Source: an uncultured Gammaproteobacteria bacterium (GTDB taxonomy: Bacteria > Patescibacteriota > Microgenomatia > JAMCZE01). Taken from it: a stretch of DNA of 29,571 bases. Below, in pieces: positions 614-24,566 of this stretch. A program made the translations under genes and the position numbers. Numbering within the stretch: position 1 is the stretch's first letter; each line of letters begins with the position of its first letter. Under the pieces are notes generated by a model, which worked only from the letters and a program-made list of their open reading frames with translations, had not been told where the DNA came from and ran no database searches. The stretch is taken from NCBI GenBank assembly GCA_964597255.1, contig CAZQWX010000063.1, positions 1 through 29,571 of the forward strand. Reading direction: 5' to 3'.

Positions 614-708
614 AACCAACATCCTCCTGTGCTTCAATTCGCGCCATGCACTACGTGTATGCTCGCGAGCTTTGCTTCGGACGGATTGATGGTTTCTAAG
701 CTCATCGT

Positions 709-726
709 CTCCGCCAAGTGGCGGAT
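709..726. repeat. Short palindromic element CTCCGCCA-AG-TGGCGGAT (intergenic copy)
   Basis: 7-bp inverted arms TCCGCCA/TGGCGGA; 16 of 18 nt identical to the copy at 14033-14050. Confidence 0.7.
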
Positions 727-747
727 TCTTTTCGCTAACAAACCATC

Positions 748-769
748 AAAAAAGCCCCCGGATGGGGAC
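748..769 (-). terminator. Putative intrinsic terminator/attenuator in the rplC leader
   Basis: Minus strand reads GTCCCC-ATCC-GGGGGC followed by TTTTTT (6-bp stem with one G.U pair, 4-nt loop, U6). Confidence 0.6.
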
Positions 770-792
770 TTTAAAGTCCTCCCTACATCCGA

Positions 793-828
793 CTATACTG
801 CGTTAGTGAGTTTAGGGCTTACTAACAT
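793..828 (-). CDS. Putative leader peptide MLVSPKLTNAV upstream of rplC
   Basis: ATG 9 nt after TATAAT; the TAG stop lies 2 nt before a hairpin that competes with the terminator at 748-769. Confidence 0.45.
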   Translation of the reverse strand: MLVSPKLTNAV

Positions 829-837
829 GTACGGTGA

Positions 838-867
838 ATTATACCAAATAAATGATGAGAAAAGCAA
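838..867 (-). promoter_or_regulatory. Sigma70-type promoter for the rplC operon
   Basis: TTGCTT-18 bp-TATAAT with an extended TG (TGgTATAAT). Confidence 0.6.
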
Positions 868-877
868 GGGTAGATAG

Positions 878-1168
878 TTAGAAGTGCACCTCAATTGTAT
901 CGGTGGGGGTTATTATTCCAAATACCTTACTTCGGGCAATTGGAAGAAATAAACCACTATTACAACCAGTAGTATATTCTGTGTCTGTAAGGTCTTTATT
1001 CAAAAGGGTGCAGCGTCTAGAAAATGGCTGAAGCCTGTGACAGCACCAGGCACAAACATCTATCCCATGCTCTAGTAACTGCGAGCGTACTTTTTCGTTT
1101 GGCTGTTGATTGACAAAATAGAGCTCCTGGGTACTTGGGCCTTCTTTGAAGACTAATCCGCCAACCAT
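878..1168 (-). CDS. Hypothetical Cys-rich protein (96 aa) inserted between rpsJ and rplC
   Basis: ORF starts 3 nt after the rpsJ stop and contains CAWCC...C...C; no family recognised. Confidence 0.5.
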   Translation of the reverse strand: MVGGLVFKEGPSTQELYFVNQQPNEKVRSQLLEHGIDVCAWCCHRLQPFSRRCTLLNKDLTDTEYTTGCNSGLFLPIARSKVFGIITPTDTIEVHF

Positions 1169-1171
1169 AAG

Positions 1172-1483
1172 TTACATTTTAATCTCGATATCCACTCCGG
1201 CCGGGAGTTCGAGATGCATGAGGGAATCGATGGTTTTGTCAGTGGGTTCGATGATATCAATAAGGCGCTTGTGAACGGTGACTTGGAAATGTTCCTGATC
1301 GTCTTTGACGTTGCTGGAATTACTAGTGACAACAGTGATTAAGGAGCGATCAGTGGGCAGAGGCACTGGACCAACGACGCTGGCTCCGGTGCGGATGGCA
1401 GCGTCAAGAATGGTTTGACAGGTCGCGTCAAGAACGCGGCCGTCGTATGCTTTTAAACGTACACGAATTCGACCTTTCGGCAT
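1172..1483 (-). CDS. rpsJ: 30S ribosomal protein S10
   Basis: IRVRLKAYD, GPVPLPT, HKRLIDI and LPAGVDIEIK motifs; located downstream of tuf. Confidence 0.97.
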   Translation of the reverse strand: MPKGRIRVRLKAYDGRVLDATCQTILDAAIRTGASVVGPVPLPTDRSLITVVTSNSSNVKDDQEHFQVTVHKRLIDIIEPTDKTIDSLMHLELPAGVDIEIKM

Positions 1484-1516
1484 CGGTTTTCTTGACTTCC
1501 CAAGGAGTCAATGTGC

Positions 1517-1596
1517 AAAAAAAAGAGTGACTAGTGACTAGTTAATAGTGACTCTGCCAGGTCGGCTGACCACTAGCAACTATTCACTAATCACTC
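1517..1596 (-). terminator. Long heptamer-periodic hairpin with U-tract after tuf
   Basis: 26-bp inverted arms at 1525-1550 and 1571-1596 (4 mismatches), followed on the minus strand by T8 (1517-1524). Confidence 0.6.
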
Positions 1597-1610
1597 TGTA
1601 AATGTGCTGA

Positions 1611-2798
1611 TTACGCTATGATCTTGGAAACGGCTCCGGCGCCAACAGTGTGGCCACCTTCGCGGATAGCAAACCGCATCCCGTCTTCCAAAGCGACTGG
1701 CTGGATGAGTTTGACTTTCATCTTGGCGTTGTCGCCCGGCATGACCATTTCAACACCCGACTCCAAGGTGACTTCACCGGTCACATCGGTTGTCCTGATA
1801 TAGAATTGTGGTCGATAGCCACTGAAGAATGGCGTGTGTCGGCCACCCTCTTCTTTGGTCAGGATGTAGACCTGGGCCTCAAATTCCGTATGGGGCGTAA
1901 TTGAGCCTGGTTTGGCAATGACCTGACCACGCTCGACCTGGTCTTTTTCAATGCCGCGGAGCAACAGTCCGACGTTGTCTCCAGCCAGACCTTCATCAAG
2001 CTGTTTGCGGAACATTTCGACCCCGGTAACCACAGTCTTTTGGGTCGCCTTAATGCCCACAATTTCTACTTCCTCGTTGACCTTAACCTTGCCGCGTTCA
2101 ATCCGACCGGTAACCACGGTGCCTCGACCTTTGATCGAGAAGACATCCTCAACTGGCATTAAGAATGGCTTATCCAGATCACGAACCGGAGTGGGAATAT
2201 AGGAATCCACCGCGTCCATGAGCTCCATGATCTTAGCTTCTTGTTCGGGATCACCTTCGACAGCTTTCAGGGCTGAGCCCTTAATGACTGGAGCTTTATC
2301 GCCGTCAAAGCCGTATTTAGTGAGTAACTCACGGACTTCGACTTCAACGAGATCCAAAAGCTCGGGATCCGAAACCATGTCGACTTTATTCAAGAAGACG
2401 ACAATGGCGGGGACATTCACTTGTTTGGCCAAGAGCAAATGCTCTCGGGTTTGGGCCATCGGACCATCGGCGGCGGAAACTACCAAAATGGCACCATCCA
2501 CCTGAGCGGCGCCAGTGATCATGTTCTTGATATAGTCGGCATGACCCGGCATCGCAATGTGAGCATAATGTCTTTTTTCTGTCTCGTATTCGACGTGGGC
2601 GATATTAATCGTGACACCACGAGCTTTTTCTTCTGGAGCGCTGTCGATGTCAGCATAATCCATCGCCTTGGCAAAGCCTTTCTTGGCGAGAACCTTAGTG
2701 ATAGCCGAAGTCAGAGTAGTCTTGCCATGGTCAACGTGACCCATGGTCCCGATATTAACGTGGGGCTTGTTACGGATGAATTTTGCTTGATCAGCCAT
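1611..2798 (-). CDS. tuf: Elongation factor Tu
   Basis: [22 protein letters not shown] and [13 protein letters not shown] motifs; G3 reads AMPG instead of DxPG. Confidence 0.98.
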
Positions 2799-2847
2799 GA
2801 TTATTTTTTAAACAATAGATAACTGCCTTCAATTGAGGCTGAAAATG

Positions 2848-2877
2848 ATTATATCGTAGCCTCGCTACACTTTGCAA
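2848..2877 (-). promoter_or_regulatory. Putative tuf promoter
   Basis: TTGCAA-18 bp-TATAAT immediately after the deformylase stop codon. Confidence 0.5.
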
Positions 2878-2885
2878 GGGGGAAA

Positions 2886-3491
2886 TTAAACTTCCTTAAG
2901 TATTTTTAGCTTTTCCCCAAAAACCTCCTCTTTTCCTTTTCTAATCAACCGCAACGACAATGGGACAGATTCGTCAAGACACAATTTTCCCATTAAATGC
3001 GAAATTTCATGTTGTAAGAGTCTGGCTGCGACGCCGTTCATTTTCTCTCTGATTTTCTTTCCATTGACATCCAGATATTCCACCATAATCCAATATGGCC
3101 TAACGATATCACCCATAACCAGTCCGAAACTTAGGCATAATTCACCCATCATGGCTTTTTCTTCTGATTCTTCAACTATTTTTGGATTAACATATACACT
3201 AAATTTTTCATTCAAAAATGTTACTATTATCTGTTTGCAAATCCCAACTTGGTTACCTGCTAGTCCACGACCATACCCAGTAATGGCTCTATAATCTTTT
3301 AGGGTAGTTTCCATGAGGTTACTCCATCGTTTTACTCTGCCAGTTTGAAAGTCCTCTTTGTTAATTTCATCACAATGGATTCGTAAAATTTTATCGCCGG
3401 CATAAACAAGTTGGGGAAATTTTTGAAGAATTAATTGAAAGTTCTTAACTTCGGAAATTAAACCAGAGTAATCTGTCTTTAATAGTTTCAT
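2886..3491 (-). CDS. def: Peptide deformylase-like protein with divergent motifs
   Basis: GRGLAGNQVG (motif 1), ELCLS (motif 2, canonical EGCLS) and QHEISHLMG (motif 3, canonical HExDH); ATGA overlap with the fusA stop. Confidence 0.85.
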   Translation of the reverse strand: MKLLKTDYSGLISEVKNFQLILQKFPQLVYAGDKILRIHCDEINKEDFQTGRVKRWSNLMETTLKDYRAITGYGRGLAGNQVGICKQIIVTFLNEKFSVYVNPKIVEESEEKAMMGELCLSFGLVMGDIVRPYWIMVEYLDVNGKKIREKMNGVAARLLQHEISHLMGKLCLDESVPLSLRLIRKGKEEVFGEKLKILKEV

Positions 3492-5572
3492 TTTTTAGCC
3501 ACGATTTGTTCCTGAATGTTCTTGGGGACCTCTTCGTAGTGAGACGGCTCCATATAATAGGAAGCGCGGCCTTGAGAAATGGACCGCAGTTTGGTGGCAT
3601 AGCCGGACAGTTCGGCCAAGGGCACCATCGCCAAAATAATCGTGGCTACTCCCCGTTTGGTGGTGCCCATGATTTGGGCCCGTTTGGCAGACAGGTCGCC
3701 GATGACGTCACCCATGAAATCATCAGGAGTTGTGACCTCGACCTTCATGATCGGCTCCAAAAGGACCATGTCGGCTTTTTTGCAAGCATCTTGCAGCGCC
3801 ATAGAACCAGCAATTTGGAAAGCAACATCAGAAGAATCCACATCATGATAGGAACCGTCATAGAGCGTGACGACCAAGTCGGTCAAGGGGTAGCTGGCAA
3901 GAATGCCATTTTGGGCACATTCCTTGGCCCCTTTTTCCACCGGGGGAATAAATTCGGCGGGAATGGAACCTCCACGGATAGCATTAACAAATTCCCAACC
4001 CTCACCACGGGCTTTGGGAGCGACCCGGAGAAGAGCATGACCATATTGGCCCCGACCACCAGTTTGACGAATATATTTACCTTCACCATTGGCTTCTTTT
4101 TTAATGGTTTCTTTGTAAGCAACCTGCGGGGCGCCAATATTAGCATCAACACCCATTTCTTCCTTCATGCGCCGGACCCAAACTTCGATGTGCAACTCGC
4201 CCATGCCAGAAATGATCGTCTGACCAGTTTCTTTATTTGACCGCAATTTAATCGTCGGGTCTTCTTCCATGATTCTCTGGAGGGCAAAACCCATTTTCTC
4301 CTGGTCATTTTTAGTTTTTGGCTCGATGGAAAAAGAAATAACCGGGTCGGCAAAAGAAATACCTTCCAAAATAATCGGATGTTGGGGATCACATAAAGTG
4401 TCGCCAGTCTTTGTCTCCTTAAGACCGACAACAGCAATAATTTCTCCGGCATAGGCCTCAGTGATTTCTTCGCGATCGTTGGCGTGCATTAACAGCAACC
4501 GGGCAATTCTTTCCTGCTGGCCATTGGTGGTATTAAGCAAATAGGAGCCGGCTTTAATCGTGCCGGAATAGACACGAACATAGTAAAGCTTACCCACATG
4601 CGGATCGAGTTGAATCTTAAAAGCCAGACCGGAAAAGGGCGCGTCGATTTTTTGCTCGCGCGTTTCTTTCTCGGTGGTCTTGGGATTGGTACCGGAAACA
4701 GCTGGCCGATCAAGGGGAGAAGGCAAGTAATCAACGACGGCATCAAGCAACAGTTTCACGGTGACGGCCCGATTGTCGCCACCAAAGACCGGAAAGATTT
4801 TTTTCTCGATAGTCCCCTGGCGAATGGCTTTTTTAAGTTCCTCAATAGTTGGCTCCTGACCCTCGAGATATTTTTCTAGTAATTTATCATCCAGCTCTGA
4901 GACTTTTTCCACCAAGATTTTGCGATAGGTCTCGACGGCGGCAACCATATTTTCCGGAACTGGCACTTCCTTAAGTTCGGTACTTTCGGCACTGTCATAG
5001 CTGTAGGCTTTTTTAGTCACTAGGTCGACCAGACCGTGGTGGTCATGTTCCAAACCAATCGGCAAAACCATGGCCACAGCACTGGGGCTGAGTTTTTCCT
5101 GGATGTCCTTGAGAGAATTGATAAAGTTGCCGCCGATGGCGTTAATTTTGTTAACGGAACAGATCCGCGGCACATCATATTTATCGGCCTGGCGCCAGAC
5201 TGTTTCCGACTGCGCCTCAACACCCATCTTGCCGTCAAAGACCATGACGGCACCATCCAAAACACGAAGAGACCGCTCGACTTCGGCGGTGAAGTCCACA
5301 TGGCCGGGTGTATCGATGATGTTAATCCGGTGGTCACGCCAGAAAGTGGTCGTGGCCGCAGAGACAATAGTAATCCCCCGCTCGCGTTCCTGAGACATCC
5401 AGTCCATTTGGGTCGTGCCTTCATCAATGTCACCGATTTTGTAAGTTTTTCCGGTGTAGAACAGGATGCGCTCCGTAGTAGTGGTCTTGCCCGCGTCGAT
5501 GTGCGCGATAATCCCAATATTGCGGATTTTGTCCTGGGGGTAGATGCGTGATTTGTTAGTCTGATCAGCCAT
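3488..5572 (-). CDS. fusA: Elongation factor G
   Basis: AHIDAGKTT, RGITI, DTPGHVDF, GMGELH and PQVAYKET motifs; 694 aa; G4/G5 are atypical (NKIN, GGD). Confidence 0.98.
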   Translation of the reverse strand: MADQTNKSRIYPQDKIRNIGIIAHIDAGKTTTTERILFYTGKTYKIGDIDEGTTQMDWMSQERERGITIVSAATTTFWRDHRINIIDTPGHVDFTAEVERSLRVLDGAVMVFDGKMGVEAQSETVWRQADKYDVPRICSVNKINAIGGNFINSLKDIQEKLSPSAVAMVLPIGLEHDHHGLVDLVTKKAYSYDSAESTELKEVPVPENMVAAVETYRKILVEKVSELDDKLLEKYLEGQEPTIEELKKAIRQGTIEKKIFPVFGGDNRAVTVKLLLDAVVDYLPSPLDRPAVSGTNPKTTEKETREQKIDAPFSGLAFKIQLDPHVGKLYYVRVYSGTIKAGSYLLNTTNGQQERIARLLLMHANDREEITEAYAGEIIAVVGLKETKTGDTLCDPQHPIILEGISFADPVISFSIEPKTKNDQEKMGFALQRIMEEDPTIKLRSNKETGQTIISGMGELHIEVWVRRMKEEMGVDANIGAPQVAYKETIKKEANGEGKYIRQTGGRGQYGHALLRVAPKARGEGWEFVNAIRGGSIPAEFIPPVEKGAKECAQNGILASYPLTDLVVTLYDGSYHDVDSSDVAFQIAGSMALQDACKKADMVLLEPIMKVEVTTPDDFMGDVIGDLSAKRAQIMGTTKRGVATIILAMVPLAELSGYATKLRSISQGRASYYMEPSHYEEVPKNIQEQIVAKK

Positions 5573-14100: not shown

Positions 14101-14714
14101 GCCCGGAGGAAAGTGGTTACCGGAAACTTCCGGCGCCGGTCAATCCGGACCGAGAGGACATTATTGCGGGATACATTAAACTCCAGCCAACTACCGCGCA
14201 GCGGCCGAATCTCGGCAGAATACAGAATCCGGCCGGTAATGGGATCAACATCGCCCAGGAAATAGGCGCCGGCGGAACGAACCAACTGGTTAATGACCGC
14301 CCGCTCGATACCATTAATAACAAATGTTCCCGATGGGGTCATGACTGGAACTTCACCAAAAAAGACTTCCTGAGAGGTCACTTCCGAGGTTTGCTTGTTG
14401 AGAAGCTTTGCTTCAATCCGAATCGGCATGTCATAGGTGATGCCCTTGCGGCCGGCCTCGGCAGCAGTGTATTTGGGCTTACTGAAAGAATATTTACCCA
14501 ACGTCAGTTCCCAGTTCTTGCCAGTGAAATCGGTGACCGGGTTGATTTCAGCAATCAATTCACCAATGCCTTCGTCAAGAAATTTTTGGTAGGATTCGGA
14601 TTGAATGGACGTGAAGTCAAGAGTGGGGAGATCGTGGTACTGCTTACCCCAATAGAGCGGGGGCTCTTGAGGGATGGCGGTAACCTTATGATTGGTTGTT
14701 TTAAGCTTGGCCAT
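11193..14714 (-). CDS. rpoB: DNA-directed RNA polymerase beta subunit
   Basis: PEGPNIGL, GRHGNKG and GGQRLGEMEVWAL motifs; probable start is the ATG at 14714 (MAKLK), as the longer ORF overlaps a structured UTR. Confidence 0.98.
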   Translation of the reverse strand: MAKLKTTNHKVTAIPQEPPLYWGKQYHDLPTLDFTSIQSESYQKFLDEGIGELIAEINPVTDFTGKNWELTLGKYSFSKPKYTAAEAGRKGITYDMPIRIEAKLLNKQTSEVTSQEVFFGEVPVMTPSGTFVINGIERAVINQLVRSAGAYFLGDVDPITGRILYSAEIRPLRGSWLEFNVSRNNVLSVRIDRRRKFPVTTFLRALGIGSDEEIRKLFAEVDPPAGGEGVDSFLDATIKKDATHGSAEGALEIYKKMRPGEPVVLETALDYINSLFFTLRRYNLGRVGRYKINKRLGLTLSNTPDNHVLSREDIVAVIKYLIRLQKGDTKAYIDDIDNLANRRLRRVGELVGNVAFRDGILRLERTIKERMSLLDPKVRAMPNQVINARPIISAINEFFRTSQLSSILDQTNPLSEVDTLRKITVMGIGGISRDRASFSIRDINASQYSRICPIRSPEGPNIGLVTFMSLYARVDEYGFLLAPYRKVVKDAKGVKITSDLIYLASDDERDFKITHAGVNIDANGYLTDKRVPVRLRGEFVEVETSEIDYIDVVPRQVVGTAAALIPFLQHDDGIRALMGCNMQAQAVPLVKSQAPVIATGIESDVAAAMGWVVKARHDGEVVFVDGSKVVLKIKGAKDKDDAIQDPKIKRAGDLETYFVSKFQRTNPNGTCYSQNPLVNVGDQIKVGDILIDGPASDHGELALGTNLTIAYMHYEGFGYEDAIIISDRLVKEDLLTSVHIEEYECEVVDTKLGPEELTRDIPNVGEGDLANLDENGIVVIGADVGPNDILVGKIAPKGETELSAEERLLRAIFGEKAREVRDTSLRMPHGERGTVIGITILDKEQGDELSPGTNKLIKIHVAQIRKISVGDKVKGRHGNKGVISRIVTMADMPHLEDGTPIDIIISPLSVLGRMNLGQLLETHLGRALSKLNQRVAVPVFERVPEEWIVDALKRAGLPADGKAVVIDGRTGEPLGSRIVVGTEYILKLHHMVEDKTHARSTGPYSLVTQQPLGGKAQMGGQRLGEMEVWALEAHRAAYTLQEMLTIKSDDVVGRAKAFEAIVKGTEIPQSTVPESFKVLVKELQSLSLSITPTGVVTAPVATTGDTTATGTTTASTTDDLKKEEKVEKEVADLETVLEAKVDVTNTSAHEAAAAGENVEEVKSVDEVQEDTKG
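14033..14050. repeat. Palindromic element CTCCGCCAGCTGGCGGAT in-frame inside rpoB (encodes DPPAGGE)
   Basis: Perfect 16-bp palindrome TCCGCCAGCTGGCGGA; near-identical copy at 709-726. Confidence 0.65.
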
Positions 14715-14823
14715 CTGCTGTTCGGTTTGGGCAGCCCGAATTACGAAAACAGGTCGTCTCCACGACGACAAAGACGAGCGAACCAACAATATGTTCGCCC
14801 AAAAAGCTATTCAACTGAGAGTT

Positions 14824-14851
14824 AGTTTACCAGAAAATTACCAAGAGTCAA
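14824..14851 (-). promoter_or_regulatory. Putative rpoBC promoter
   Basis: TTGACT-16 bp-TAAACT with an extended TG. Confidence 0.5.
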
Positions 14852-14861
14852 GAGAGGAAAT
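14845..14861. repeat. 17-bp direct repeat, copy 1 (GAGTCAAGAGAGGAAAT)
   Basis: Exact match to 17475-17491; extends to 20 of 21 nt with the CCA flank. Confidence 0.85.
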
Positions 14862-15241
14862 TACTGATCATCTTTACTACCTAATTTGCTCCTCGGCCAC
14901 CTATGCCAATCGCAAACTATGTCCCAAACTTCTTGCCAGTCGCGATATTTTCGTTTCTCCCACATCTCATAATCAGCAGCGAAGTTCAGCCGATCGTGGT
15001 GTTCTGGCCGACGTAACTGATCACCTAATATAACCTTATATTCTTTTCCCTCGTGAACTATGCAAGCCCCAGCTTTTCCGCTGCTAGCATCAACAACTGA
15101 TCGGGAAAATGGATCAGTTATCTCCCCAAGGGTTCGCTGGGTCCAAACTCCTTCAATAGAATGCCAGAAATCAAGAAAATAGGTGTTATGTGTATGAGCA
15201 AAAAGTCTACCAGCTCTTTCGTAAACCCCGGGTTCAGACAT
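14861..15241 (-). CDS. Hypothetical protein (126 aa), third gene of the His-swivel operon
   Basis: AGGAGG 7 nt before the ATG at 15241; the start overlaps the upstream gene stop (ATGTCTGA); no family recognised. Confidence 0.7.
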   Translation of the reverse strand: MSEPGVYERAGRLFAHTHNTYFLDFWHSIEGVWTQRTLGEITDPFSRSVVDASSGKAGACIVHEGKEYKVILGDQLRRPEHHDRLNFAADYEMWEKRKYRDWQEVWDIVCDWHRWPRSKLGSKDDQ

Positions 15242-16322
15242 TCGATTCCTCCTTTTGATTGTTTTGCTGCCCTGGAACATAATTACTCCGGGGATCAAAA
15301 GCCTGCTTCAACTCATTCCAGCCAAGTTCATCAGCAGCATCAAGCCTAATTTCCTTCCAGGTGTTAATTATGTCTAAAATTAGCTTCGGTGGTCGCCAAT
15401 CCTGACCGAAAGCTGCCCGCCATTTTCGGAAGGCATAATACCGACTTTCCACGAACTTCCAGGTGACCTGCCTATGGGTCATGGAGTTTAACAGCTCATG
15501 TTGCCTAGCAACCTGATGCAAGATTTTTCCACATACTCCACCAGCCATTTTTGTGCTGATAATTTCTTTTCCCCCAACCTCGAGATAGACTGCACTCGCA
15601 GCTTCTGTCAAAGCTCCCCTAACTGACGGGTGATCAAAAATATCGATGTTTATTGCGGACATTGGCTTATAGAGGACCAGTAGTTTCGCGTTGGGATAAT
15701 CAAACTCTTTTGTCTCCGGCCAAAGTTCTACTGGCCGGATATTAAAAAAATCACTAACCACCAGCAGGGCCTTTGTCCCATCTGCCAAGGTCACGGGATA
15801 TGGCCCATGGTGCTGATAGCCCACATCATCCCAACCATAAAAATATAAACTCCAAATGAGTGCCTTAATGCTGGCCGAGACTTTAAAGCACGACCGAATC
15901 AGAGCGGGGTCATGTGTCCAGTGAGTTGCCTGACAAACCTTCTGGGCTTGATCTTGCTGCCAAATGCGATTAGTACCGTCCAGACAAAAAATGTCTCCAG
16001 ATTGTACCTCTTCCAAAGCGTCGAATATTTTCTCCACAAACCATACACGTTGAGTGGCAGAGATAGCTGGTTTGGCCACCTTCAACCCAACAATTAGGTC
16101 CATCAGCGACCCTTTGGTCGCTCCGCACGAGACAAACAGATCCGACAGTTTGATCTTGGATCCTGGCCTGGTTATCACCTGCATTTTTTGATACAAATCA
16201 GCTGCTTCCAGGTCTGAAAAGTATGGGGCTACCTCACTAATCGGCATGGGCCACGGCGCAATCTGGCCAGTGTGGACAAATGCCAACTCTAAAGCTGAGA
16301 GCCATTGATCAATCCGCTTCAT
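15234..16322 (-). CDS. Uncharacterised ~362-aa protein coupled to a PEP-utilising mobile domain
   Basis: Long ORF; ATG at 16322 after AAAGGAGAGG, overlapping the end of the swivel gene by 14 nt. Motif-like stretches YFYGWDDVGYQHHGPY, DIFDHP and WRPP; no family recognised. Confidence 0.85.
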   Translation of the reverse strand: MKRIDQWLSALELAFVHTGQIAPWPMPISEVAPYFSDLEAADLYQKMQVITRPGSKIKLSDLFVSCGATKGSLMDLIVGLKVAKPAISATQRVWFVEKIFDALEEVQSGDIFCLDGTNRIWQQDQAQKVCQATHWTHDPALIRSCFKVSASIKALIWSLYFYGWDDVGYQHHGPYPVTLADGTKALLVVSDFFNIRPVELWPETKEFDYPNAKLLVLYKPMSAINIDIFDHPSVRGALTEAASAVYLEVGGKEIISTKMAGGVCGKILHQVARQHELLNSMTHRQVTWKFVESRYYAFRKWRAAFGQDWRPPKLILDIINTWKEIRLDAADELGWNELKQAFDPRSNYVPGQQNNQKEESNV

Positions 16323-16638
16323 ACACCTCTCCTTTCTGACCGTCAATCATAATCTTCATACCCGTGGCAATCACCACCGTTGCCTTTTTTGTAGCTACCA
16401 CACAAGGAATCCCCAGCTCCCGGGCCACGATTGCCGGATGGGAGTTCACTCCCCCAAGGTCAGTCACAATTCCAGCAGCATGCTGAATGATGCCGACAAA
16501 CATGGTTGTGTCAGTAATTCTGGTAACCAGGATGTCACCATGCTTCAGGGACTGCGCTTTGTGGGAAAACATAATCACCCTGGCCATACCAGTGGCTTTT
16601 CCGGCTCCAGCCGGCCAACCTTTGACAAGTAGCTTCAT
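16309..16638 (-). CDS. Stand-alone PEP-utilising enzyme mobile (phospho-His swivel) domain
   Basis: GDILVT...AAGIVTDLGGVNSHPAIVARELGIPCVV matches the PPDK/PEPS/EI/Rph phospho-His signature (His67); only 109 aa. Confidence 0.92.
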   Translation of the reverse strand: MKLLVKGWPAGAGKATGMARVIMFSHKAQSLKHGDILVTRITDTTMFVGIIQHAAGIVTDLGGVNSHPAIVARELGIPCVVATKKATVVIATGMKIMIDGQKGEVYEAD

Positions 16639-16676
16639 GGGTGCTATGATAAACTACGACGTAACGTATGAGTCAA
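16622..16676. promoter_or_regulatory. Overlapping divergent promoters with a MerR-type operator
   Basis: Minus strand: TTGACT (16676-71)-19 bp-TATCAT (16651-46), with the dyad ACT-N3-ACGT-N-ACGT-N3-AGT at 16653-16673. Plus strand: TTGACA (16622-27)-17 bp-TATGAT (16645-50). Confidence 0.85.
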
Positions 16677-17459
16677 GATCTACTCAATATCGGTGACTTT
16701 GCCAAGATGGCCGAGACGACCAAGCGCACGGTTTTATGGTATGAAGAAAAGGGTATTTTGAAGCCAAAACAGGTCGATACTGAGAATGGCTACCGATTAT
16801 ATGCAATCGACCAAATCATCGATTTCAAAGCTATTCTTTTACTACGAAAGCTTGACTTCTCGATTGAAGAAATAAGAAGTTTTCTGGCCAAACAGCATAC
16901 GCCAGAGGCACTGTTTAACCTAAAGAAAAAAGCCTTACAGCAAGAAATTGCTGACTTGCAAACTGTCCTGCGTGACACCGATAAGTATTACCGCAACCTG
17001 CAGAAAACCGGCACCTTGGTCGATCCGAGAATAAAAACATTTAAATCTTTTCCGGTGTTTTATATCGACAAACTTGGTCCTTACTATCAGATTGATGATT
17101 ATTTTACGCAGTTGCGATCATGTTTTGACTTTATTCCCCCAACTGTCAAGGGTCTGGTACTTTACGAAGGCGTTGGCTATCAACCAAAAAATGTCAAAAC
17201 CAAGATTTGTTTTTGGATTAGGCCCGGTTTAAAACTCAAGCCAGAAGCCAAAGACGTCGTCAAAAAGATGACTGTCCCAGGATTTAGGGCTTTGGCCTAT
17301 ACCCACTATGGATCAAGCCGGTTATTATCCATGCTTTGGGTGGAGCTCAAGAAGTATCAGGTTAAAAATGACTATAAAGCCGATCAGAGCTTGCCATTTG
17401 AAGATGCGGAATTGTCTGAAAGTGCCCATGTCACCGAGATGTTGATGCCAATTAAATAG
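16668..17459 (+). CDS. MerR-family transcriptional regulator with C-terminal GyrI-like effector domain
   Basis: N-terminal IGDFAKMAETTKRTVLWYEEKGILKP..D.ENGYRLY wHTH, then a coiled coil and a C-terminal ALAYTHYGS...Y domain. Confidence 0.92.
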   Translation: MSQDLLNIGDFAKMAETTKRTVLWYEEKGILKPKQVDTENGYRLYAIDQIIDFKAILLLRKLDFSIEEIRSFLAKQHTPEALFNLKKKALQQEIADLQTVLRDTDKYYRNLQKTGTLVDPRIKTFKSFPVFYIDKLGPYYQIDDYFTQLRSCFDFIPPTVKGLVLYEGVGYQPKNVKTKICFWIRPGLKLKPEAKDVVKKMTVPGFRALAYTHYGSSRLLSMLWVELKKYQVKNDYKADQSLPFEDAELSESAHVTEMLMPIK

Positions 17460-17474
17460 TTTTACTTTTGCCAG

Positions 17475-17491
17475 GAGTCAAGAGAGGAAAT
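17475..17491. repeat. 17-bp direct repeat, copy 2
   Basis: Identical to 14845-14861; lies between the convergent merR and copZ stop codons. Confidence 0.85.
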
Positions 17492-17709
17492 CAGGATGGC
17501 TCTGACTGATCAGAAATTTTATAGCCAGACTTCGCGACGATCTGCTTGATATCCTGGTCACTAATTTTTTCCGGCTCGTATTCCACCTCGACAACTTGGT
17601 TGGCATAGCTGCATTTGGCTTTAATGCCATGGTCCTCCAGATCCCACTCGATCGTCATAGCGCAGGAGCTGCAATGCATGCCGGATACGCTAAAGGTTTT
17701 TTTGATCAT
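17491..17709 (-). CDS. copZ: Copper chaperone (HMA domain)
   Basis: 72 aa with a GMHCSSC metal-binding motif; last gene of the copper operon. Confidence 0.88.
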   Translation of the reverse strand: MIKKTFSVSGMHCSSCAMTIEWDLEDHGIKAKCSYANQVVEVEYEPEKISDQDIKQIVAKSGYKISDQSEPS

Positions 17710-18704
17710 ATGACATTAATTACCCCGCGGTACATGCCCATGGCACACATAAATGGTACTGTTCCGGTGGTGGTCGGCGCTGTAAAATCAACGGTTTCTG
17801 TTGTTCCAACTTGAACAATTTTACGAATCCCAAATGATGGGATGGTAAAAGCCATGGCACAACCGCCGCCGCCTTTGTTGACCAGGGTCAACTTTACCGG
17901 TAGCCCCGCTTTCACTGTCACTTGGTTGGGAGTGTAGCCGCCTGGTCCAATAGTAACAGTTGGAGTTTGAGAAACGTCTTGGGCGACGACCGGACCGTCG
18001 GTGCAAATGGTCACAGTACAAATAACCTGCCGGAGAACATTCTGTGCTCCAAAGGTCACGCCAGTAAGAGCAAAAGCATTATTTAAATTAAAAACGGCCA
18101 GGCCGATGACCACAACAGCGGCCAGGCGTAAGAATTGTTGCTGCATCACTTCACCCAGTCTGGTAGCCAAGTAGCCCAAGATAAAGAAAACCGGTGACGT
18201 GCCCAAAATGAAAGCCAGCATAATTAAAGCTCCAGACAAAGGTTGGCCAGAAGCGATGGCCAAGGCCATCATCGCCTGGGTGGTTCCACAAGGCACAAAA
18301 ATAGTAAAAGCTCCCAAGATTAGTGGGGCAAAGACACTTTTTGATCGGGAACTGTCACGAACCAGCCGGGTCAAAAATCGTGGTGGCTGGATAACAAAAT
18401 AACGAAAAATTGGATGGGCTTGGAGTAAATTTAGCGCTGAGCCAATCATAAAAACGGCAACAAAAATTTGCAGCAAGCCTTGGGTCTGGGTGGACAATTG
18501 AAAGGCACTACCCAGAAGACCAAGGAGCATGCCCAAGATGGTATAAGCAATAAGCTTGGCTCCCAAGAAATACATAATGGTCAGACCGCCCCGTTTCTCC
18601 CCTTCGGTTTGAGCGATAGTTGTGGCCAAAAGCCCGCCTTGGACAGCCAAACAACTCAGACCGCCAGCCAGAAGGCCAGTTAAAAAGATGGCTACAAGGT
18701 TCAT
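17706..18704 (-). CDS. TauE/DsbD_2-like membrane protein with C-terminal cupredoxin domain
   Basis: [19 protein letters not shown], multiple TM segments; C-terminal [11 protein letters not shown]...C...[10 protein letters not shown] cupredoxin-like domain. Confidence 0.85.
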
Positions 18705-20767
18705 AATTTTGCTCCTTTCAAGCGCAGCGAATTAGTCACCACTGATAGGGAACTGGCGGCCATGGCAAAGCCGGCCAACATGGGATTGAGAAAGCCGAGC
18801 ATCGCTGCCGGAATTAAAATGATGTTATAACCGAAAGCCCAGAAGAGATTCTGTTTGATGGTGCGCATGGTTTTGCGCGACAAATCAATTGCCGCCGCCA
18901 CACTGGTCAAGTCTTTGTTTAACAGCGTCACGCCGGCAGCTTCAATGGCGACATCGGTCCCCGAGCCCATGGCCATGCCCACGCTGGCCACGACCAAAGC
19001 CGGAGCGTCGTTGATCCCATCCCCAACCATGGCAACCTTTTTGTTTTTGCTTTGCAGCTTTTGAACTTCAGCTGCTTTGTCTTGCGGCAGAATCTCCGCT
19101 AACACTTTAGCAATACCCAGTTGAGAGGCAATTTTTTTAGCAGTTTCAGTGTTATCACCAGTGAGCATGACGGTCTCGATACCCATGGTGTTTAGCTTGG
19201 TGATACCAGTCTTAGCGGTATCTTTAATAGTATCAACGACGGTTATAGTCCCGGCGGGTTTGCCACTGACCACCAAAGTCATGCCCGGCTTGCCAAAAGT
19301 CATGGTCTTATCGGCGATGATTCCTTCCACACCGACGCCGGGAACAGCTTTAAAATTGGTCACCGGTAGTAATGTGAGCTTTTCTTCAGTGGCTTTTTTT
19401 AAAATGGCATCAGCCAAGGCGTGTTCCGATCCCTTTTCCAGACTGGCGGCCAGCTGTAAAACGTCGTGGGTGTTATATTTGGCATCCTGTACTTGGATAG
19501 CAGTTACTTCCGGCTGACCTTTGGTTAAGGTGCCGGTTTTGTCAAAAACCACCGTCGTCACTTGGTTGGCAATTTCCAGCGTCACAGCGTCGCGGATTAA
19601 AATACCATGCTCCGCCCCTTTGCCCACCCCAACCATAATCGCCGTCGGCGTCGCCAAGCCCAAGGCACAGGGACAGGCAATGATCAGAACGGCAATCATG
19701 TTGGTGAACGCTGGCAAAAACGAGCCAGTGTCATACCAAAACACAAAGGTTACTACTGCCAGGATTAAAATCACGGGAACGAAATAAGAGGAAATGGTAT
19801 CGGCCAACCGCTGAATTGGCGCCCGCGAACTTTGGGCCGTGGCCACCAGGGCCACGATCTGGGACAAAACCGTATCTGACCCAATTTTCGTGGCAGTAAA
19901 GACGAAACTCCCGGTTTTGTTCAAGGTAGCACCAATGACAGTGTCGCCAACGGCTTTTTCTACCGGCAGGGACTCGCCAGTGACCATCGATTCGTCAATG
20001 GCACTTTGACCCTCGGTAATGGTGCCGTCGACGGGAATTTTCTCACCAGGCCGGACCCGAATAAGGTCGCCAACTTGGACCTGGTCGATGGGGATGTCGA
20101 TCTCTTTCCCGTGACGCACCACCCGGGCAGTCTTGGCCGCCAAGCCCAACAATTTTTTGATCGCATCGCTGGTATGCACTTTGGCTTTAGCTTCCAAGAA
20201 GCGGCCCAGCAGAATCAAAGTAATAATGACCGCGGCGGAATCGAAGTAGGTATTGGATGTCAAGCCCACAACTGCCAAGGCTGAATAGCCAAAAGCAGCA
20301 GTGGTGCCCACGGCAATCAGGGTGTCCATGTTAGCCGTCCGGTTGCGCAACCCCGACCAGGCGGCTTGATAGAACCCGCGACCCACCCAGAATTGGACCG
20401 GGGCCGCCAGCAAAAAGAGAACGTAGTTTGGGACCACGATATGAAACAAGTCAGGAAAACTGCCGATGACGACCAGGATACTTAAGATTGCGGCGATGAT
20501 TATTTTGGTTTGGAGTGCTGCTAGCTCTTGCTTCTTGACGGCTTCTTTGGTCGCCTCAGTGCCAACTTGATAGCCCAAGTCAGCCACAGCCGAAGATAAG
20601 TCTGCTTGATGACATGTAGTCTCGTCATAGTCAACCGAGGCTTGTTCACTGCCATAATTCACCGTGGCCGCGGTCACGCCCGGAACTTTCAACAAGCGCC
20701 GCTCGATTAATCTGGCGCAGGAGGCGCAATGCATGCCAATAATTGGCAAGGTGGTTTTAGTGGTCAT
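18701..20767 (-). CDS. copA: Copper-translocating P1B-type ATPase
   Basis: [40 protein letters not shown] and MAASS motifs; probable start is the ATG at 20767 (MTTKTT). Confidence 0.96.
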
Positions 20768-20864
20768 GGCTTGTGGTATTAGTATTCTTTTGGCCGGCAA
20801 AAAAGAACCAGGCAATTAACCCGGCTAACAACAATCCGCCGACAGTGACCAAAACTTTATCCAT
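20757..20864 (-). CDS. Small membrane peptide (35 aa) resembling the CupA N-terminal anchor
   Basis: Manual translation [35 protein letters not shown]; overlaps both the csoR stop and the copA start. Confidence 0.65.
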
Positions 20865-21197: not shown

Positions 21198-21986
21198 TCA
21201 AGGGAGAAAGTTGTGGTCGGATCTTGAACACCAGAAATTAAAAATGGCTAACCATTGGGCAAACGACAAATCAGTCGGTTTGGCATGAAGACTAAAATGA
21301 TTAGCATCGGCCAGTCGCTTCCATTGATTAAAAGTAAATATCTTCTTCAGACCAACTTTTAGATCCTTTTTCCAGGTGCCGAAAGCGAATTTGATGAAGT
21401 TCTTATAGAGCAGCTCCTGGTCAGGGGAAATCAGAGGGATTGTGCGCTTGGTAATCGTTAGTAGGACAATATCCACTTCTGGGGCTGGTTGGAAATCTGT
21501 CTGATTAAACTTCCAAATGAGACGAAAATCGAACCACGGCTTGGTCAAAAGCGAGGCTTGGGTTTCCCTGGGAAGACCGGCAAACTTTTCGGCGGCTTCT
21601 TGTTGAACCACCAGATAGGCAACTTCCGGGGGTCGAGAATAATAAAGCAGTTTATAGATGATGTCGGCGGTGAGGTGAAACGGCAGATTGGCAAAGACCT
21701 TGTAAGGCTGGTTTGGCAGAGAATATTGCCGGATGTCAGCCTGGCAGACGGCAACATTGGGATAGTTTCTGAGATTGCTGCGAAGCTGGCCGACCAGATT
21801 AGTGTCGACTTCCACAGCAATGACCCTGGCTCCGGTTTGAGCCAACTCGCGCGTGATGGTTCCAGTCCCCGCCCCAATATCAACGATTAGGTCGTTAGGG
21901 ACAAACTGAGCTTTGCCCACCAAGTGAGCCACCAGTTTGGGATCCCGGAAAAAGTTTTGCGACAACAATCTTCTTTGTAAATTCAT
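21198..21986 (-). CDS. Erm-like rRNA adenine N6-methyltransferase (Erm/KsgA family)
   Basis: SQNF, VDIGAGTG, VIAVEVD, ANLPF, F.PAPEVD motifs and an Erm-like C-terminus (IFT..Q..RL, LSFAQWLAIF); AAGGAGG before the ATG at 21986. Confidence 0.85.
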   Translation of the reverse strand: MNLQRRLLSQNFFRDPKLVAHLVGKAQFVPNDLIVDIGAGTGTITRELAQTGARVIAVEVDTNLVGQLRSNLRNYPNVAVCQADIRQYSLPNQPYKVFANLPFHLTADIIYKLLYYSRPPEVAYLVVQQEAAEKFAGLPRETQASLLTKPWFDFRLIWKFNQTDFQPAPEVDIVLLTITKRTIPLISPDQELLYKNFIKFAFGTWKKDLKVGLKKIFTFNQWKRLADANHFSLHAKPTDLSFAQWLAIFNFWCSRSDHNFLP

Positions 21987-22080
21987 AAGAACCCCTCCTT
22001 TCGGTCGGGAACCTTGCGCCCGAGCACTTACAGTGTAAACACCTGCGTGTTCGGGGCTAGATACACCTTCCTTTTTGCAC

Positions 22081-22109
22081 ACAAAAAAACCAGTCCTAGT
22101 GACTGGTTT
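22081..22109 (-). terminator. Attenuator terminator in the erm leader
   Basis: Minus strand reads AAACCAGTC-ACTAG-GACTGGTTT followed by further Ts (perfect 9-bp stem). Confidence 0.8.
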
Positions 22110-22177
22110 ACTGATTTATTAGCTATTTAGATTTGGATGCGAATTACCAACACAAAAACCAGCCGCTAGGCGGTTAC

Positions 22178-22216
22178 TTAGGCTTGTGGCCTATATGTGT
22201 CGATAACTTTCGTCAT
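22178..22216 (-). CDS. Putative erm leader peptide MTKVIDTYRPQA
   Basis: ATG 9 nt after TGcTATAAT; the stop abuts the first hairpin of the leader. Confidence 0.6.
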   Translation of the reverse strand: MTKVIDTYRPQA

Positions 22217-22225
22217 ACTTGGTGA

Positions 22226-22234
22226 ATTATAGCA
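22226..22234 (-). promoter_or_regulatory. Extended -10 promoter of the erm leader
   Basis: TGcTATAAT on the minus strand. Confidence 0.6.
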
Positions 22235-22279
22235 CAAAAGCTGCTCGAATTCATGTTCGCCTGTCTGTCGTTTTACCTA

Positions 22280-23095
22280 TTAAAACCACTTCTCAAAAAA
22301 TGACGCCAAATCCTTTGAAAGTTGTGGGCCGATTCCTATCCCCTGCTTCTTATCTCTAAATTTATGTGCAGTTTCGATCTGAACTGCGTTTATTTTATAT
22401 TTTGTCGCATAGTATCGGGTTGTAAATTCTGCGGCATATAAATCTTCTTTTTGGTGTGTGGCGCTTTTATCTCCAGGAACAAATACTTCATATCCTTTAT
22501 GTCTTAGGTATTCACCCATAGCAAGATCGATATCGCCATAGTAAATCGATGTTCTGTTACCGGTACCTAGAATCAGGTCGTATCCACCTTTGGGAGCATA
22601 ATCTGGTTGCTTGGCAAATCCATGTAAATCAATCAAAAGGCAACCTGCCTTGCCGTAACGATTAATTGATTCCTCCAACAACTGCCCGATTGTTCCATGA
22701 TACTGTCTATATTCAGGAGCGTAACGGGAATTTTCCAGAGCAAGTTGCGGTTTCTGACCCTTGTAGTAGCTTCTGGGGATTGGCCAACTTCGGTTCAGAT
22801 CCACCATACCCCTTGGAATATCTCCTTTAACTACACTTATAAATTCGCGGATGTTTAGCCGTTTAGAACCAAACAGAATATCTTTGGCAATAAGCCACAC
22901 TCCAGGATCACCACCAGTGACGCCTTTTCGTCGATCCCTTATTTTGTCTGGCCATTTATAATTTGGCATCCCGTCATGAGGTACTGTAATTACCACCCGA
23001 CTTGGCTTTTTTGCTTGCCAGACCTCAGTAAAGTTTATGTTGGTTACCCGATGGTGTTCAAAGTCAATAAAATTTTTAGCCATAGTGTCAAACAT
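22280..23095 (-). CDS. N-formylglutamate amidohydrolase-family protein
   Basis: VITVPHDG, VDLNR, YH, LLIDLHGF, DLILGTG and AVQIE motifs; GGGAGG 7 nt before the ATG. Confidence 0.78.
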   Translation of the reverse strand: MFDTMAKNFIDFEHHRVTNINFTEVWQAKKPSRVVITVPHDGMPNYKWPDKIRDRRKGVTGGDPGVWLIAKDILFGSKRLNIREFISVVKGDIPRGMVDLNRSWPIPRSYYKGQKPQLALENSRYAPEYRQYHGTIGQLLEESINRYGKAGCLLIDLHGFAKQPDYAPKGGYDLILGTGNRTSIYYGDIDLAMGEYLRHKGYEVFVPGDKSATHQKEDLYAAEFTTRYYATKYKINAVQIETAHKFRDKKQGIGIGPQLSKDLASFFEKWF

Positions 23096-23096
23096 T

Positions 23097-23119
23097 AAAA
23101 AACCTCCCGGTTGGGAGGC
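23097..23119 (-). terminator. Terminator/SD-sequestering hairpin directly before the amidohydrolase ATG
   Basis: Minus strand reads GCCTCCC-AACC-GGGAGG-TTTTTT. Confidence 0.72.
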
Positions 23120-23144
23120 ATAGAGTCAATTGTGATTATTTATT

Positions 23145-23225
23145 TCAGGAAATAATAGCCTCCCAACGAACATCGGGAGATTTGGCAGGGGAATAGTTGT
23201 TGTATACGTCAACTCTGGAATTCAT
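23145..23225 (-). CDS. Putative leader peptide MNSRVDVYNNYSPAKSPDVRWEAIIS
   Basis: ATG 8 nt after TATAAT; its 3' codons contain the 10-nt complement of the terminator 5' arm. Confidence 0.55.
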   Translation of the reverse strand: MNSRVDVYNNYSPAKSPDVRWEAIIS

Positions 23226-23233
23226 GTTTTGCG

Positions 23234-23262
23234 ATTATACTTTATTGAGACTATTTTGTCCA
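23234..23262 (-). promoter_or_regulatory. Sigma70-type promoter for the amidohydrolase leader
   Basis: TGGACA-17 bp-TATAAT. Confidence 0.7.
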
Positions 23263-23342
23263 AAAAAATATTTTGTGTACAGAAAATTTGGCCCCAGTCA
23301 AAGAACCATACATGGAATTAGATTAGCTTTCATGTATGCATA

Positions 23343-24560
23343 TCATTCTGCCAGTATTGTCTCGACGATTTCCCTACTTAGCACCATGTTCTTGGTAGCG
23401 CCTTGGTCAAGTTTCGTTACCAAGTTTTTTGTGATGAATGGCAAGGAAAATAATAGCATTGCGGCCATGAGCGTTGAGACGGGATCGAGGGAGAGATGGA
23501 GAAATTCGTCGACACTGTGGGCATAGGTGCCGCGACGAAAAGTGGCATTAATAGCAATCGTGTATTTTTCTCCCAAACTGGCACCACGGCGGATCGCGCC
23601 GGTGACTTCGGTGGTCATTTGGTGACTTTCCACGCCATTTTTGGAAGTCAACGCTTTTCGTGGCACATCACCCAAAGCTGTTTTGATCATCATCTCGGGC
23701 ATATTCGGGCCGGCCAGACTGGCATTGATGGTCTCCCCGATTCTGGGATTACCTTCGAGGATAAATGACGTGCCGCTAGACTTTTCTCGGATGAAATCAA
23801 GCATCATTGGGCCGGTCCAATTGAGAGCTTTGCCGAGCTTCTCAGCATAGGATCTAATATCGTCGTCATTTTGACTTTGCCGATGGCTAGCGCCACCACC
23901 AAAACCAGTCGACAGGGCAAGATACTGGTGGGAGGCAATCAGCTTGCCCCGCACAAAAATTGTTTGGATAGTAAGTTGTTGGCCGACAACTTCTTCCTGA
24001 ACAATTAAGTCTGATTCATTTCGGAAACGGTGTATAGCCCGTTGACGATCAGCATCAGTCGCGATCCGGGCAACGCCAGAGCTGCTGGTGCCATAGGGTG
24101 TTTTCACATAGGTTGGTTTGGTCAGAGAAAGGGTTGTTAGCCCAGAAGCACTTTTTAGAAAAGTCATTTTGGGGACGGGTATACCCAATGATTTTGCCTT
24201 GGTCAAACAAAGTTGCTTGCTCATAATGGTGTTAAAAACTTCTGCAGAGCCTAAAAGTATGTGAGTGTATTGTTGGAGCTCGTGTTGATACTTAGCCAAA
24301 AATAGGCCCTCTTCGTGGATTGGCAAAATGACATCATATTTTTCCTGTTTCAGTAGATGTAATAAGAACTCAAGATAGGCATTTATATCGCGGTTTAGTC
24401 GTGGGCTTTGGAAAAACTGTGAACAATGGCGGTGAAATCTGGCCCAGCAAAAATTATTAGAATCGCAAACATGAACTTCATATTTTGCGGGGTCAAGAAT
24501 AGTTAAGGCCTGGACTGTGGCCGGGGTGGAACCATTAAGGATCAGAATCTTTAGCCGCAT
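23343..24560 (-). CDS. ATP-grasp domain protein
   Basis: YDVILPIHEE, YVKTPYGTSSSGV, LIVQEEVVG and LDFI...ILEGNPR motifs; start at 24560 or 24566. Confidence 0.82.
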   Translation of the reverse strand: MRLKILILNGSTPATVQALTILDPAKYEVHVCDSNNFCWARFHRHCSQFFQSPRLNRDINAYLEFLLHLLKQEKYDVILPIHEEGLFLAKYQHELQQYTHILLGSAEVFNTIMSKQLCLTKAKSLGIPVPKMTFLKSASGLTTLSLTKPTYVKTPYGTSSSGVARIATDADRQRAIHRFRNESDLIVQEEVVGQQLTIQTIFVRGKLIASHQYLALSTGFGGGASHRQSQNDDDIRSYAEKLGKALNWTGPMMLDFIREKSSGTSFILEGNPRIGETINASLAGPNMPEMMIKTALGDVPRKALTSKNGVESHQMTTEVTGAIRRGASLGEKYTIAINATFRRGTYAHSVDEFLHLSLDPVSTLMAAMLLFSLPFITKNLVTKLDQGATKNMVLSREIVETILAE

Positions 24561-24566
24561 GGCCAT

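Follow-up and report, generated by a model that had tools for sequence, protein, structure and literature searches.

The DNA considered here is a stretch of 29,571 nucleotides (nt), which we call the window in full, and its host contig (C63) is part of the 0.86-Mb, 86% complete genome of an ultra-small bacterium of the CPR (Candidate Phyla Radiation) type; the closest relatives of the window genes carry the label Candidatus Microgenomates. Within it lies a four-gene unit. Three of its genes are read from the minus strand and form an operon: a gene for a stand-alone phosphohistidine swivel protein of 109 aa (16309..16638 (-)), a gene for a 362-aa protein whose family and fold have no prior description and which we call X (15234..16322 (-)), and an orphan open reading frame (ORF) of 126 aa (14861..15241 (-)). 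The fourth gene is divergent from the operon and encodes a 263-aa MerR-family regulator with a putative C-terminal GyrI-like effector domain (16668..17459 (+)). We propose a phosphotransferase of the histidine-swivel dikinase type, with the swivel protein as one subunit and X as the other, that likely serves in small-molecule phosphorylation, X being the putative second-substrate (acceptor) module, and we put the probability of this reading at roughly 0.6.

The swivel protein and its coupling to X

In Pfam the swivel protein matches PF00391 at E 5.3e-23 over 72 of 72 profile positions and matches no other domain, and its best match in NCBIfam is the central domain of phosphoenolpyruvate (PEP) synthase. 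The carrier histidine, His67, lies within TDLGGVNSHPAIVARE, in the motif TDLGGVNSH67PAIVARE, of which the stretch T59-D-L-G-G-V-N-S-H67 follows the pattern T/SxxGGxxxH, the carrier-histidine signature of swivel dikinases (PMC12167813), and so places the protein among these mobile domains. Of 32 aligned swivels 31 retain this histidine, including every swivel that is linked to X, and the X-linked swivels have an SHP signature in common in the alignment. The ATG of X is situated 14 nt inside the swivel gene, behind AAAGGAGAGG. The earlier note on this DNA had described a 109-aa protein made up of the PEP-utiliser His domain only, translationally coupled to a 362-aa protein with HHGPY and DIFDHP motifs, in a unit with no recognisable ATP-grasp or PEP barrel, and all of this stands: PF00391 spans its whole profile, the overlap of the two genes is as described, both motifs are present, and searches of the unit returned neither a PPDK_N-type ATP-grasp (Pfam, NCBIfam and a hidden Markov model (HMM) of the grasp) nor a PEP-utilizers_C domain (PF02896; Pfam and NCBIfam).

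Family and predicted fold of X

X has no match in Pfam, NCBIfam or PADLOC, and the profile of its family finds nothing among the PDB sequences. A word-based search recovers only 36 close clusters of relatives; by profile search of 1.8 billion representatives the family comprises 522 clusters at E <= 0.001, clusters being defined at 50% identity. The AlphaFold2 (AF2) model of X, built with 34 homologues, reaches a predicted local distance difference test score (pLDDT) of 89.5 and a predicted template modelling score (pTM) of 0.88, and consists of a helical N-terminal half, a 4-5-stranded sheet that begins at the HGPY motif and a helical C-terminal part, a succession of predicted secondary structure that is not that of an alternating beta/alpha barrel. 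Foldseek finds no neighbor of this model in the PDB (best E 0.04, TM 0.12) and no match in BFVD. We also modelled P0074, a natural swivel-X fusion and a very divergent member of the family, for which AF2 predicts a single confident body (pLDDT 93.4, pTM 0.87). Its swivel part superposes on Rph, PPDK, enzyme I and the C-terminal domain of pyruvate kinase at a root-mean-square deviation of ~1 A over ~103 residues; its X part is matched by no solved structure in Foldseek, the PPDK and PEPS matches being confined to the swivel, and neither of the two X models matches 5FBS, 5FBT, 5FBU or 5HV1-3 beyond the swivel.

By these models X represents an undescribed family with a fold that has no solved relative, and it is in this sense, the folds compared being those of the PDB and BFVD, that we speak of a new fold. 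The Foldseek comparison that the earlier note had proposed as a check on the 362-aa protein therefore assigns it to no known unrelated family, as do Pfam, NCBIfam and the PDB profile search. P25 is among the residues conserved across the family, as are the charged or polar K81, D110, N118, H172-G-P-Y175, D227 and D343-P and the aromatic W24, F112, W201, Y218 and W309; the charged, polar and aromatic ones are candidates for a second, phosphoryl-receiving site.

Several other assignments were considered for X and its neighbors. That X is a diverged TIM barrel, an Rph binding domain or a kinase fold is unsupported in Pfam, NCBIfam, the PDB profile search and Foldseek on two divergent models. An anti-phage defence function was rejected, there being no PADLOC match for the swivel, X, the 126-aa ORF or the fusions; only the helix-turn-helix (HTH) of MerR touches a model (‘mad1’). 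A link to 25-hydroxysteroid kinase was likewise dismissed, since that kinase is a monomer of the APH type and is unrelated. The search for look-alikes of X and the 126-aa ORF in the ESM Atlas gave nothing usable.

Pairing and fusion of swivel and X

A free swivel gene adjoins a stand-alone X gene in 25 of the 31 distinct loci that were fetched, usually with an overlap of 10-14 nt, and the pairs include a 20%-identical one on a 1.4-Mb contig as well as pairs in archaeal-type contexts. Natural fusions exist too: among the best 150 of the 522 X-family representatives, 133 consist of X alone, 5 of swivel and X, 10 of PPDK_N, swivel and X, and 2 of X in tandem. Because the genes adjoin in so many loci and are also found fused, the pairing is far beyond chance. 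The three-domain fusions are ~770 aa long; the PEP synthase model recognizes their first two domains with 438 bits, and X stands in the place of the C-terminal PEP/pyruvate barrel, PF02896 being absent from X and from the fusions. In six loci the grasp, the swivel and X are three separate neighboring genes, which occur in the orders grasp, swivel, X (L017, L019, L020), swivel, X, grasp (L046, L064) and X, swivel, grasp (L065). Fusions and neighboring separate genes together therefore present the classic pattern of parts of one enzyme. The survey of neighborhoods and fusions suggested in the earlier note thus speaks for its view of the 362-aa protein as a new acceptor-binding (or phosphate-donor) module, since X both co-occurs with swivels (25/31) and fuses with them (5 and 10 proteins). 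In P0074 the linker between the two domains is only ~2 residues long, which suggests that the carrier stays close to X, and the high pTM of the model suggests a defined docking of the swivel on X.

The family also contains less regular arrangements. P0084, one of the ten three-domain fusions, has the permuted order swivel, grasp, X, and the two X-X tandem proteins are P0054 (711 aa) and P0073 (665 aa). About 850 nt downstream of the swivel+X pair of L015 there is a second pair in reverse order (L015:6919-8335 (+)), in which an unannotated 366-aa protein, without a Pfam match and unlike X or the grasp, overlaps a 107-aa swivel gene. In L013 (337-1803 (-)) and L033 (2570-3999 (-)) a 341-353-aa protein with an XRE-type HTH and a faint NUDIX signal directly precedes a free swivel gene, which in L033 is the one coupled to X. 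The window genome itself encodes a second swivel protein on contig C1 (L010:1459-2586 (-)), 375 aa in length, with an unannotated 255-aa N-terminal region that has no similarity to X and a C-terminal swivel.

The regulator and its promoters

The HTH of the regulator matches PF13411 at E 3e-13 and also PF00376 (Pfam). Its GyrI-like region (residues 119-262) aligns with positions 2-154 of the 155 in PF06445 at E 0.0021, its score of 18.8 bits falling short of the cut-off of 26. L001 has a MerR/GyrI-like regulator in the corresponding position that shares 29% identity over 261 aa with the one in the window, and the precomputed table assigns PF06445 to it. The start codons of merR and the swivel gene are 29 bp apart. 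The operon promoter (16646..16676 (-)) is composed of TTGACT (16676-16671), which falls within merR codons 2-3, a 19-bp spacer containing the dyad ACGTTACGT (16659-16667), and TATCAT (16651-16646), 7 nt from the swivel ATG; because the -10 box is so close to the start codon, the swivel mRNA is probably leaderless. The promoter of merR (16622..16650 (+)), TTGACA-17-TATGAT with 11/12 matches and a TG extension, has its -35 box inside the swivel gene and a -10 box that overlaps that of the operon.

At L001 the promoter reads TTGCAT-19-TATAGT-7-ATG, and its dyad, TATGAC-n5-GTCATA, sits in the register seen in the window. On contig C122 (about 637-3662) a paralogue of the regulator, also MerR/GyrI-like and 38% identical to it, is transcribed divergently from a split pair of UvrA-like ATPases, and the promoter there, TTGACT-19-TATTAT, harbors a perfect 17-bp palindrome, TATAACGTAACGTTATA, whose ACGTnACGT core and whose register are those of the operator in the window; given this shared core and register, cross-regulation between the window and C122 is possible. 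The long-spacer geometry typical of MerR promoters is thus kept in three independent loci (window, L001 and C122), which bears out the description of the unit as facing a MerR/GyrI-like regulator across a 19-bp-spacer promoter. MerR activators work on spacers of 19-20 bp (PMC8113463, PMC7722741), and by analogy the operon may be induced by a ligand. Induction by a ligand, as in the term ‘ligand-induced’ of the earlier note, and more narrowly by a drug, is something that we infer from context.

The 126-aa ORF

The ATG of the third gene of the operon overlaps the stop codon of X (ATGTCTGA) and is preceded by a strong Shine-Dalgarno sequence, AAAGGAGGAA. A search of 5.8 billion proteins yields no homologue of the ORF, the related loci contain nothing that corresponds to it, and its codon score is 0.036, where the in-frame mean of the genome is 0.203 and the 5th percentile 0.086. 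The lack of a homologue and the poor codon statistics rule it out as a conserved third subunit. The possibility that it is a decayed ATP-grasp, its slot being that of the grasp gene in L046 and L064, was also rejected, as the grasp HMM, run with filters off over 14501-15400, found nothing. The ORF may be a lineage-specific gene and, to judge by its sequence, falls outside the conserved system. Of the ‘two unknown proteins’ originally placed in that system, the 362-aa X keeps its place through co-occurrence and fusions, whereas the 126-aa protein, for all its translation signals, is an orphan.

Genomic context and distribution

Two 24-nt direct repeats, 22/24 identical and 2630 nt apart from start to start, exactly bracket the unit of merR, swivel, X and orphan ORF. 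The left copy (14838..14861) carries a TTGACT -35-like box upstream of rpoB, and the right copy (17468..17491) directly follows the stop codon of an HMA (CopZ-like) gene. On this evidence the four-gene unit looks like an inserted cassette. An empty insertion site was not found in relatives, where the ATPase, DsbD-like and HMA genes stay together and rpoB lies elsewhere. The X family is present in 3 of 61 relatives, in 0 of 15 from the same family and, in a sample of 301 genomes across the phylum, in 7.

In CPR loci, MerR/GyrI-like regulators adjoin swivel+X (window, L001), and L017 has a free GyrI-like protein; in L001, L002, L012 and L021 the MerR/GyrI-like gene is separated from swivel+X by a split UvrA-like pair (346 + 416 aa). 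Ecm16 and DrrC, two proteins of the UvrA-like type, confer protection from antibiotics that bind DNA (PMC9328131, PMC10192343), and GyrI-like domains bind or hydrolyse compounds of the DNA-binding-antibiotic type (PMC5684135, PMC10414762). Because of these neighbors and the known roles of such proteins, the context hints at a xenobiotic response, and it is from context too that the substrate would be a small molecule.

Phosphatase genes occur near X elsewhere: a histidine phosphatase superfamily gene adjoins X in L032 (778-1479 (-)), a faint relative of the histidine phosphatases lies ahead of the L027 fusion (L027:5121-6011), and a low-molecular-weight (LMW) phosphatase is encoded two genes upstream of the L044 fusion (L044:3556-4224). 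These neighbors are hints of a cycle of phosphorylation and dephosphorylation.

Beyond the right repeat, the window contains a copper-type module (17491-20815 (-)) made up of an HMA-domain P-type ATPase, a membrane protein with DsbD_2 and cupredoxin domains, and a 72-aa HMA protein, the gene order of which is kept in relatives. Further on (21198-24566 (-)) follow a 294-aa RrnaAD-family rRNA adenine methyltransferase (Erm/KsgA-like), an FGase-family protein and an ATP-grasp_3 protein (407 aa); the last of these has no similarity to the ATP-grasp_3 protein that precedes X in L008.

The phosphate donor in the window genome

Swivel+X has no grasp gene nearby in ~19 of the 31 loci. The only PPDK_N-type protein assembled in the window genome is encoded on contig C70 (L026:1219-3054 (+)); it is 611 aa long, with a divergent PPDK_N (E 4e-15) and a 300-aa tail that has no Pfam swivel and holds a swivel-like stretch, GGAHFAEICKRKDILFLG, and its gene adjoins a phage-like gene. 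As it was not found in any of 60 relatives, among them G023, which has two swivel+X pairs, this protein has no co-occurrence support as a dedicated donor. At the end of contig C80 (6476-6691) a PEP synthase gene is cut short, so that just its C-terminal 72 residues are encoded there; they share 65% identity with the G023 enzyme. Because this C-terminus runs off the contig end, a complete PEP synthase (PpsA) is probably present in the genome, unassembled. In G023 the sole PPDK_N belongs to a true PEP synthase. For the window genome the leading, though unproven, idea is that the swivel is charged in trans, with either PEP synthase or a shared grasp protein as the donor; it is favored because the unit has no grasp gene, a PpsA is likely present and the only grasp of G023 is that of PEP synthase. 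At the level of the family there is an answer to the phosphate source, which the earlier note had called unexplained: other members have a fused or adjacent PPDK_N ATP-grasp.

Proposed mechanism and alternatives

In the proposed enzyme, which is conceived by analogy with PEP synthase, Rph and the split HpeHI, CreHI and PpsAB enzymes (PMC4844700, PMC12167813), His67 of the swivel would carry the phosphoryl group, and X would stand in for the PEP/pyruvate TIM barrel of PEP synthase, binding the second substrate and receiving (or supplying) the phosphoryl group; X is cast as the second-substrate module because it occupies the position of that barrel in the fusions. In the ancestral or complete form a PPDK_N ATP-grasp would charge the swivel histidine from ATP. 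In the window genome the grasp would act in trans (the truncated PEP synthase or the C70 protein), or another donor would take its place. The divergent MerR/GyrI-like regulator would activate the 19-bp-spacer promoter once a hydrophobic xenobiotic occupies its effector domain, and the likely role of the pair would be the phosphorylation, for inactivation or processing, of a small molecule. Four observations weigh against this picture: the unit has no ATP-grasp or PEP barrel, and most CPR loci likewise have none nearby; the C70 grasp protein was not found in the 60 relatives, including a genome with two pairs; the GyrI-like match of the regulator is under the Pfam cut-off; and the ~2-residue linker of P0074 is easier to reconcile with a docked carrier than with one swinging over to a grasp domain some distance away.

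The alternatives differ in how much of the chemistry they keep. The absence of a dedicated ATP-grasp may be genuine, the swivel then being charged by the housekeeping PEP synthase (from PEP or ATP), or X binding both donor and acceptor and moving phosphate from small molecule to small molecule. We consider this possible, if doubtful. Besides the ~19 grasp-less loci, the C80 terminus and the single PPDK_N of G023, it draws on the precedents of HpeH, which alone moves phosphate between phenolic substrates (PMC12167813), and of the enzyme I of the phosphotransferase system (PTS), which alone phosphorylates rifampicin in vitro (PMC13099321); however, the 16 family members with a dedicated grasp, fused or adjacent, indicate that an ATP-grasp is the normal donor. 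With the chemistry left as proposed, the role could instead be metabolic or biosynthetic, X phosphorylating an endogenous metabolite or natural-product intermediate from which a neighboring phosphatase later removes or eliminates the phosphate. This is somewhat unlikely but a serious rival, because biosynthetic or phosphatase genes adjoin X elsewhere: distant members neighbor a nonribosomal peptide synthetase (L019), a radical-SAM protein (L020), or a cytochrome P450 with a nucleoside triphosphate (NTP)-transferase and an ATP-grasp_3 protein (L008), and the phosphatases near X are those of the histidine superfamily (L032 and, faintly, L027) and the LMW type (L044). The CPR neighbors, by contrast, are MerR/GyrI-like regulators, a free GyrI-like protein and split UvrA-like ATPases, and the patchy rarity of the family (3/61 and 7/301 genomes) is atypical for core metabolism.

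The remaining two alternatives do away with an active enzyme in the window. If the cassette were no longer functional, the decaying remains of a three-part enzyme whose ATP-grasp was lost upon insertion, the flanking repeats would be accounted for, as would the slot behind X, which holds a grasp gene in L046 and L064 and here an orphan ORF with poor codon statistics. Yet the frames of swivel, X and merR are intact with normal codon scores (0.16-0.28), the catalytic histidine and all family-conserved residues of X are retained, the orphan ORF bears no trace of a grasp domain, and grasp-less pairs with a like overlap are the commonest form and occur in many lineages, all of which makes decay improbable. 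Least probable of all, to the point that we give it very little credence, is that X is a regulatory or signalling target set by the phosphorylated swivel in the manner of the PTS and not an enzyme module: free swivel genes do also follow HTH_3 and NUDIX-like proteins in L013 and L033, but X has no match to a DNA-binding or signalling domain and replaces the catalytic barrel in the PEP-synthase-like fusions.

The histidine-swivel phosphotransferase proposed here also allows a more far-reaching version, in which swivel and X would constitute a new class of antibiotic-inactivating histidine-swivel kinase with a new acceptor fold, forming in ultra-small bacteria, with the UvrA-like DNA-drug resistance ATPases and under GyrI-type drug sensors, a small regulon directed against a DNA-targeting or other hydrophobic natural product, its carrier charged in trans by a shared ATP-grasp or PEP synthase. 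We offer this tentatively, as an unlikely but consequential extension.

Significance

The second-substrate modules of swivel-histidine dikinases are the PEP/pyruvate barrel, the Rph-type binding domain and the glucan-binding modules. X would add a fourth, unrelated to these, which comprises ~520 sequence clusters from bacteria and archaea and has no relative of solved structure. Its family displays every stage of splitting, from one ~770-aa chain through three separate genes to a free 109-aa carrier. The observation of a swivel coupled to an unfamiliar partner is confirmed, and its interpretation as a swivel-histidine dikinase that is split in an unusual way and has an acceptor module not described before is supported. 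Should the substrate prove to be an antibiotic, the pair would represent a new class of resistance enzyme carried by CPR bacteria; should the free carrier be charged in trans, it would amount to a PTS-like relay made of parts of a dikinase. Three small soluble proteins would allow a direct test of the system.

Comparison with known systems

The regulatory part of the locus resembles the BmrR/EcmrR-type MerR activators (PMC7722741, PMC8113463) in its combination of a MerR HTH with a putative GyrI-like C-terminal domain and in its divergent 19-bp-spacer promoter with a central dyad. It differs in that the presumed target is a phosphotransfer pair and not an efflux pump, in that the GyrI-like match is sub-threshold, and in that just 29 bp separate the divergent genes, the swivel gene being probably leaderless. 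The UvrA-like ATPases, of which Ecm16 and DrrC are the described examples (PMC9328131, PMC10192343), enter as neighbors or co-regulated partners outside the window unit, with a resistance role that would follow by homology.

Among the phosphotransfer enzymes, PEP synthase is the closest counterpart of the swivel, which is nearest to its central domain (NF005057, E 1e-29), and the 770-aa relatives of X keep its order of ATP-grasp followed by swivel. Unlike PEP synthase, these proteins have X in place of the C-terminal PF02896 barrel, the enzyme of the window is split and its unit has no grasp, and the regulatory threonine before the histidine is replaced by Asn-Ser in the window swivel. Rph combines an ATP-grasp, a swivel-histidine carrier and a dedicated small-molecule-binding domain without structural relatives to inactivate an antibiotic (PMC4844700). 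The swivel-histidine logic proposed here is the same, and the P0074 swivel superposes on that of Rph at 1.0-1.4 A, whereas the order in Rph is grasp, rifampicin-binding domain, swivel; the NCBIfam models of Rph align to the window swivel only, and X has no Foldseek match to Rph entries. In HpeH, CreH and the PpsA of phenylphosphate synthase an Rph-type acceptor is fused N-terminally to the swivel, whereas the window swivel is free. HpeHI, CreHI and PpsAB are split small-molecule dikinases whose separately encoded subunits form no stable complex (PMC12167813), and with them the swivel-X system shares the division of a dikinase into separate genes, small molecules being the substrates in their case. 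Their cut falls between the grasp and a unit of Rph-homologous acceptor and swivel, whereas here the swivel is free and X is of an unrelated fold, and in the X family the grasp may be fused, adjacent or absent.

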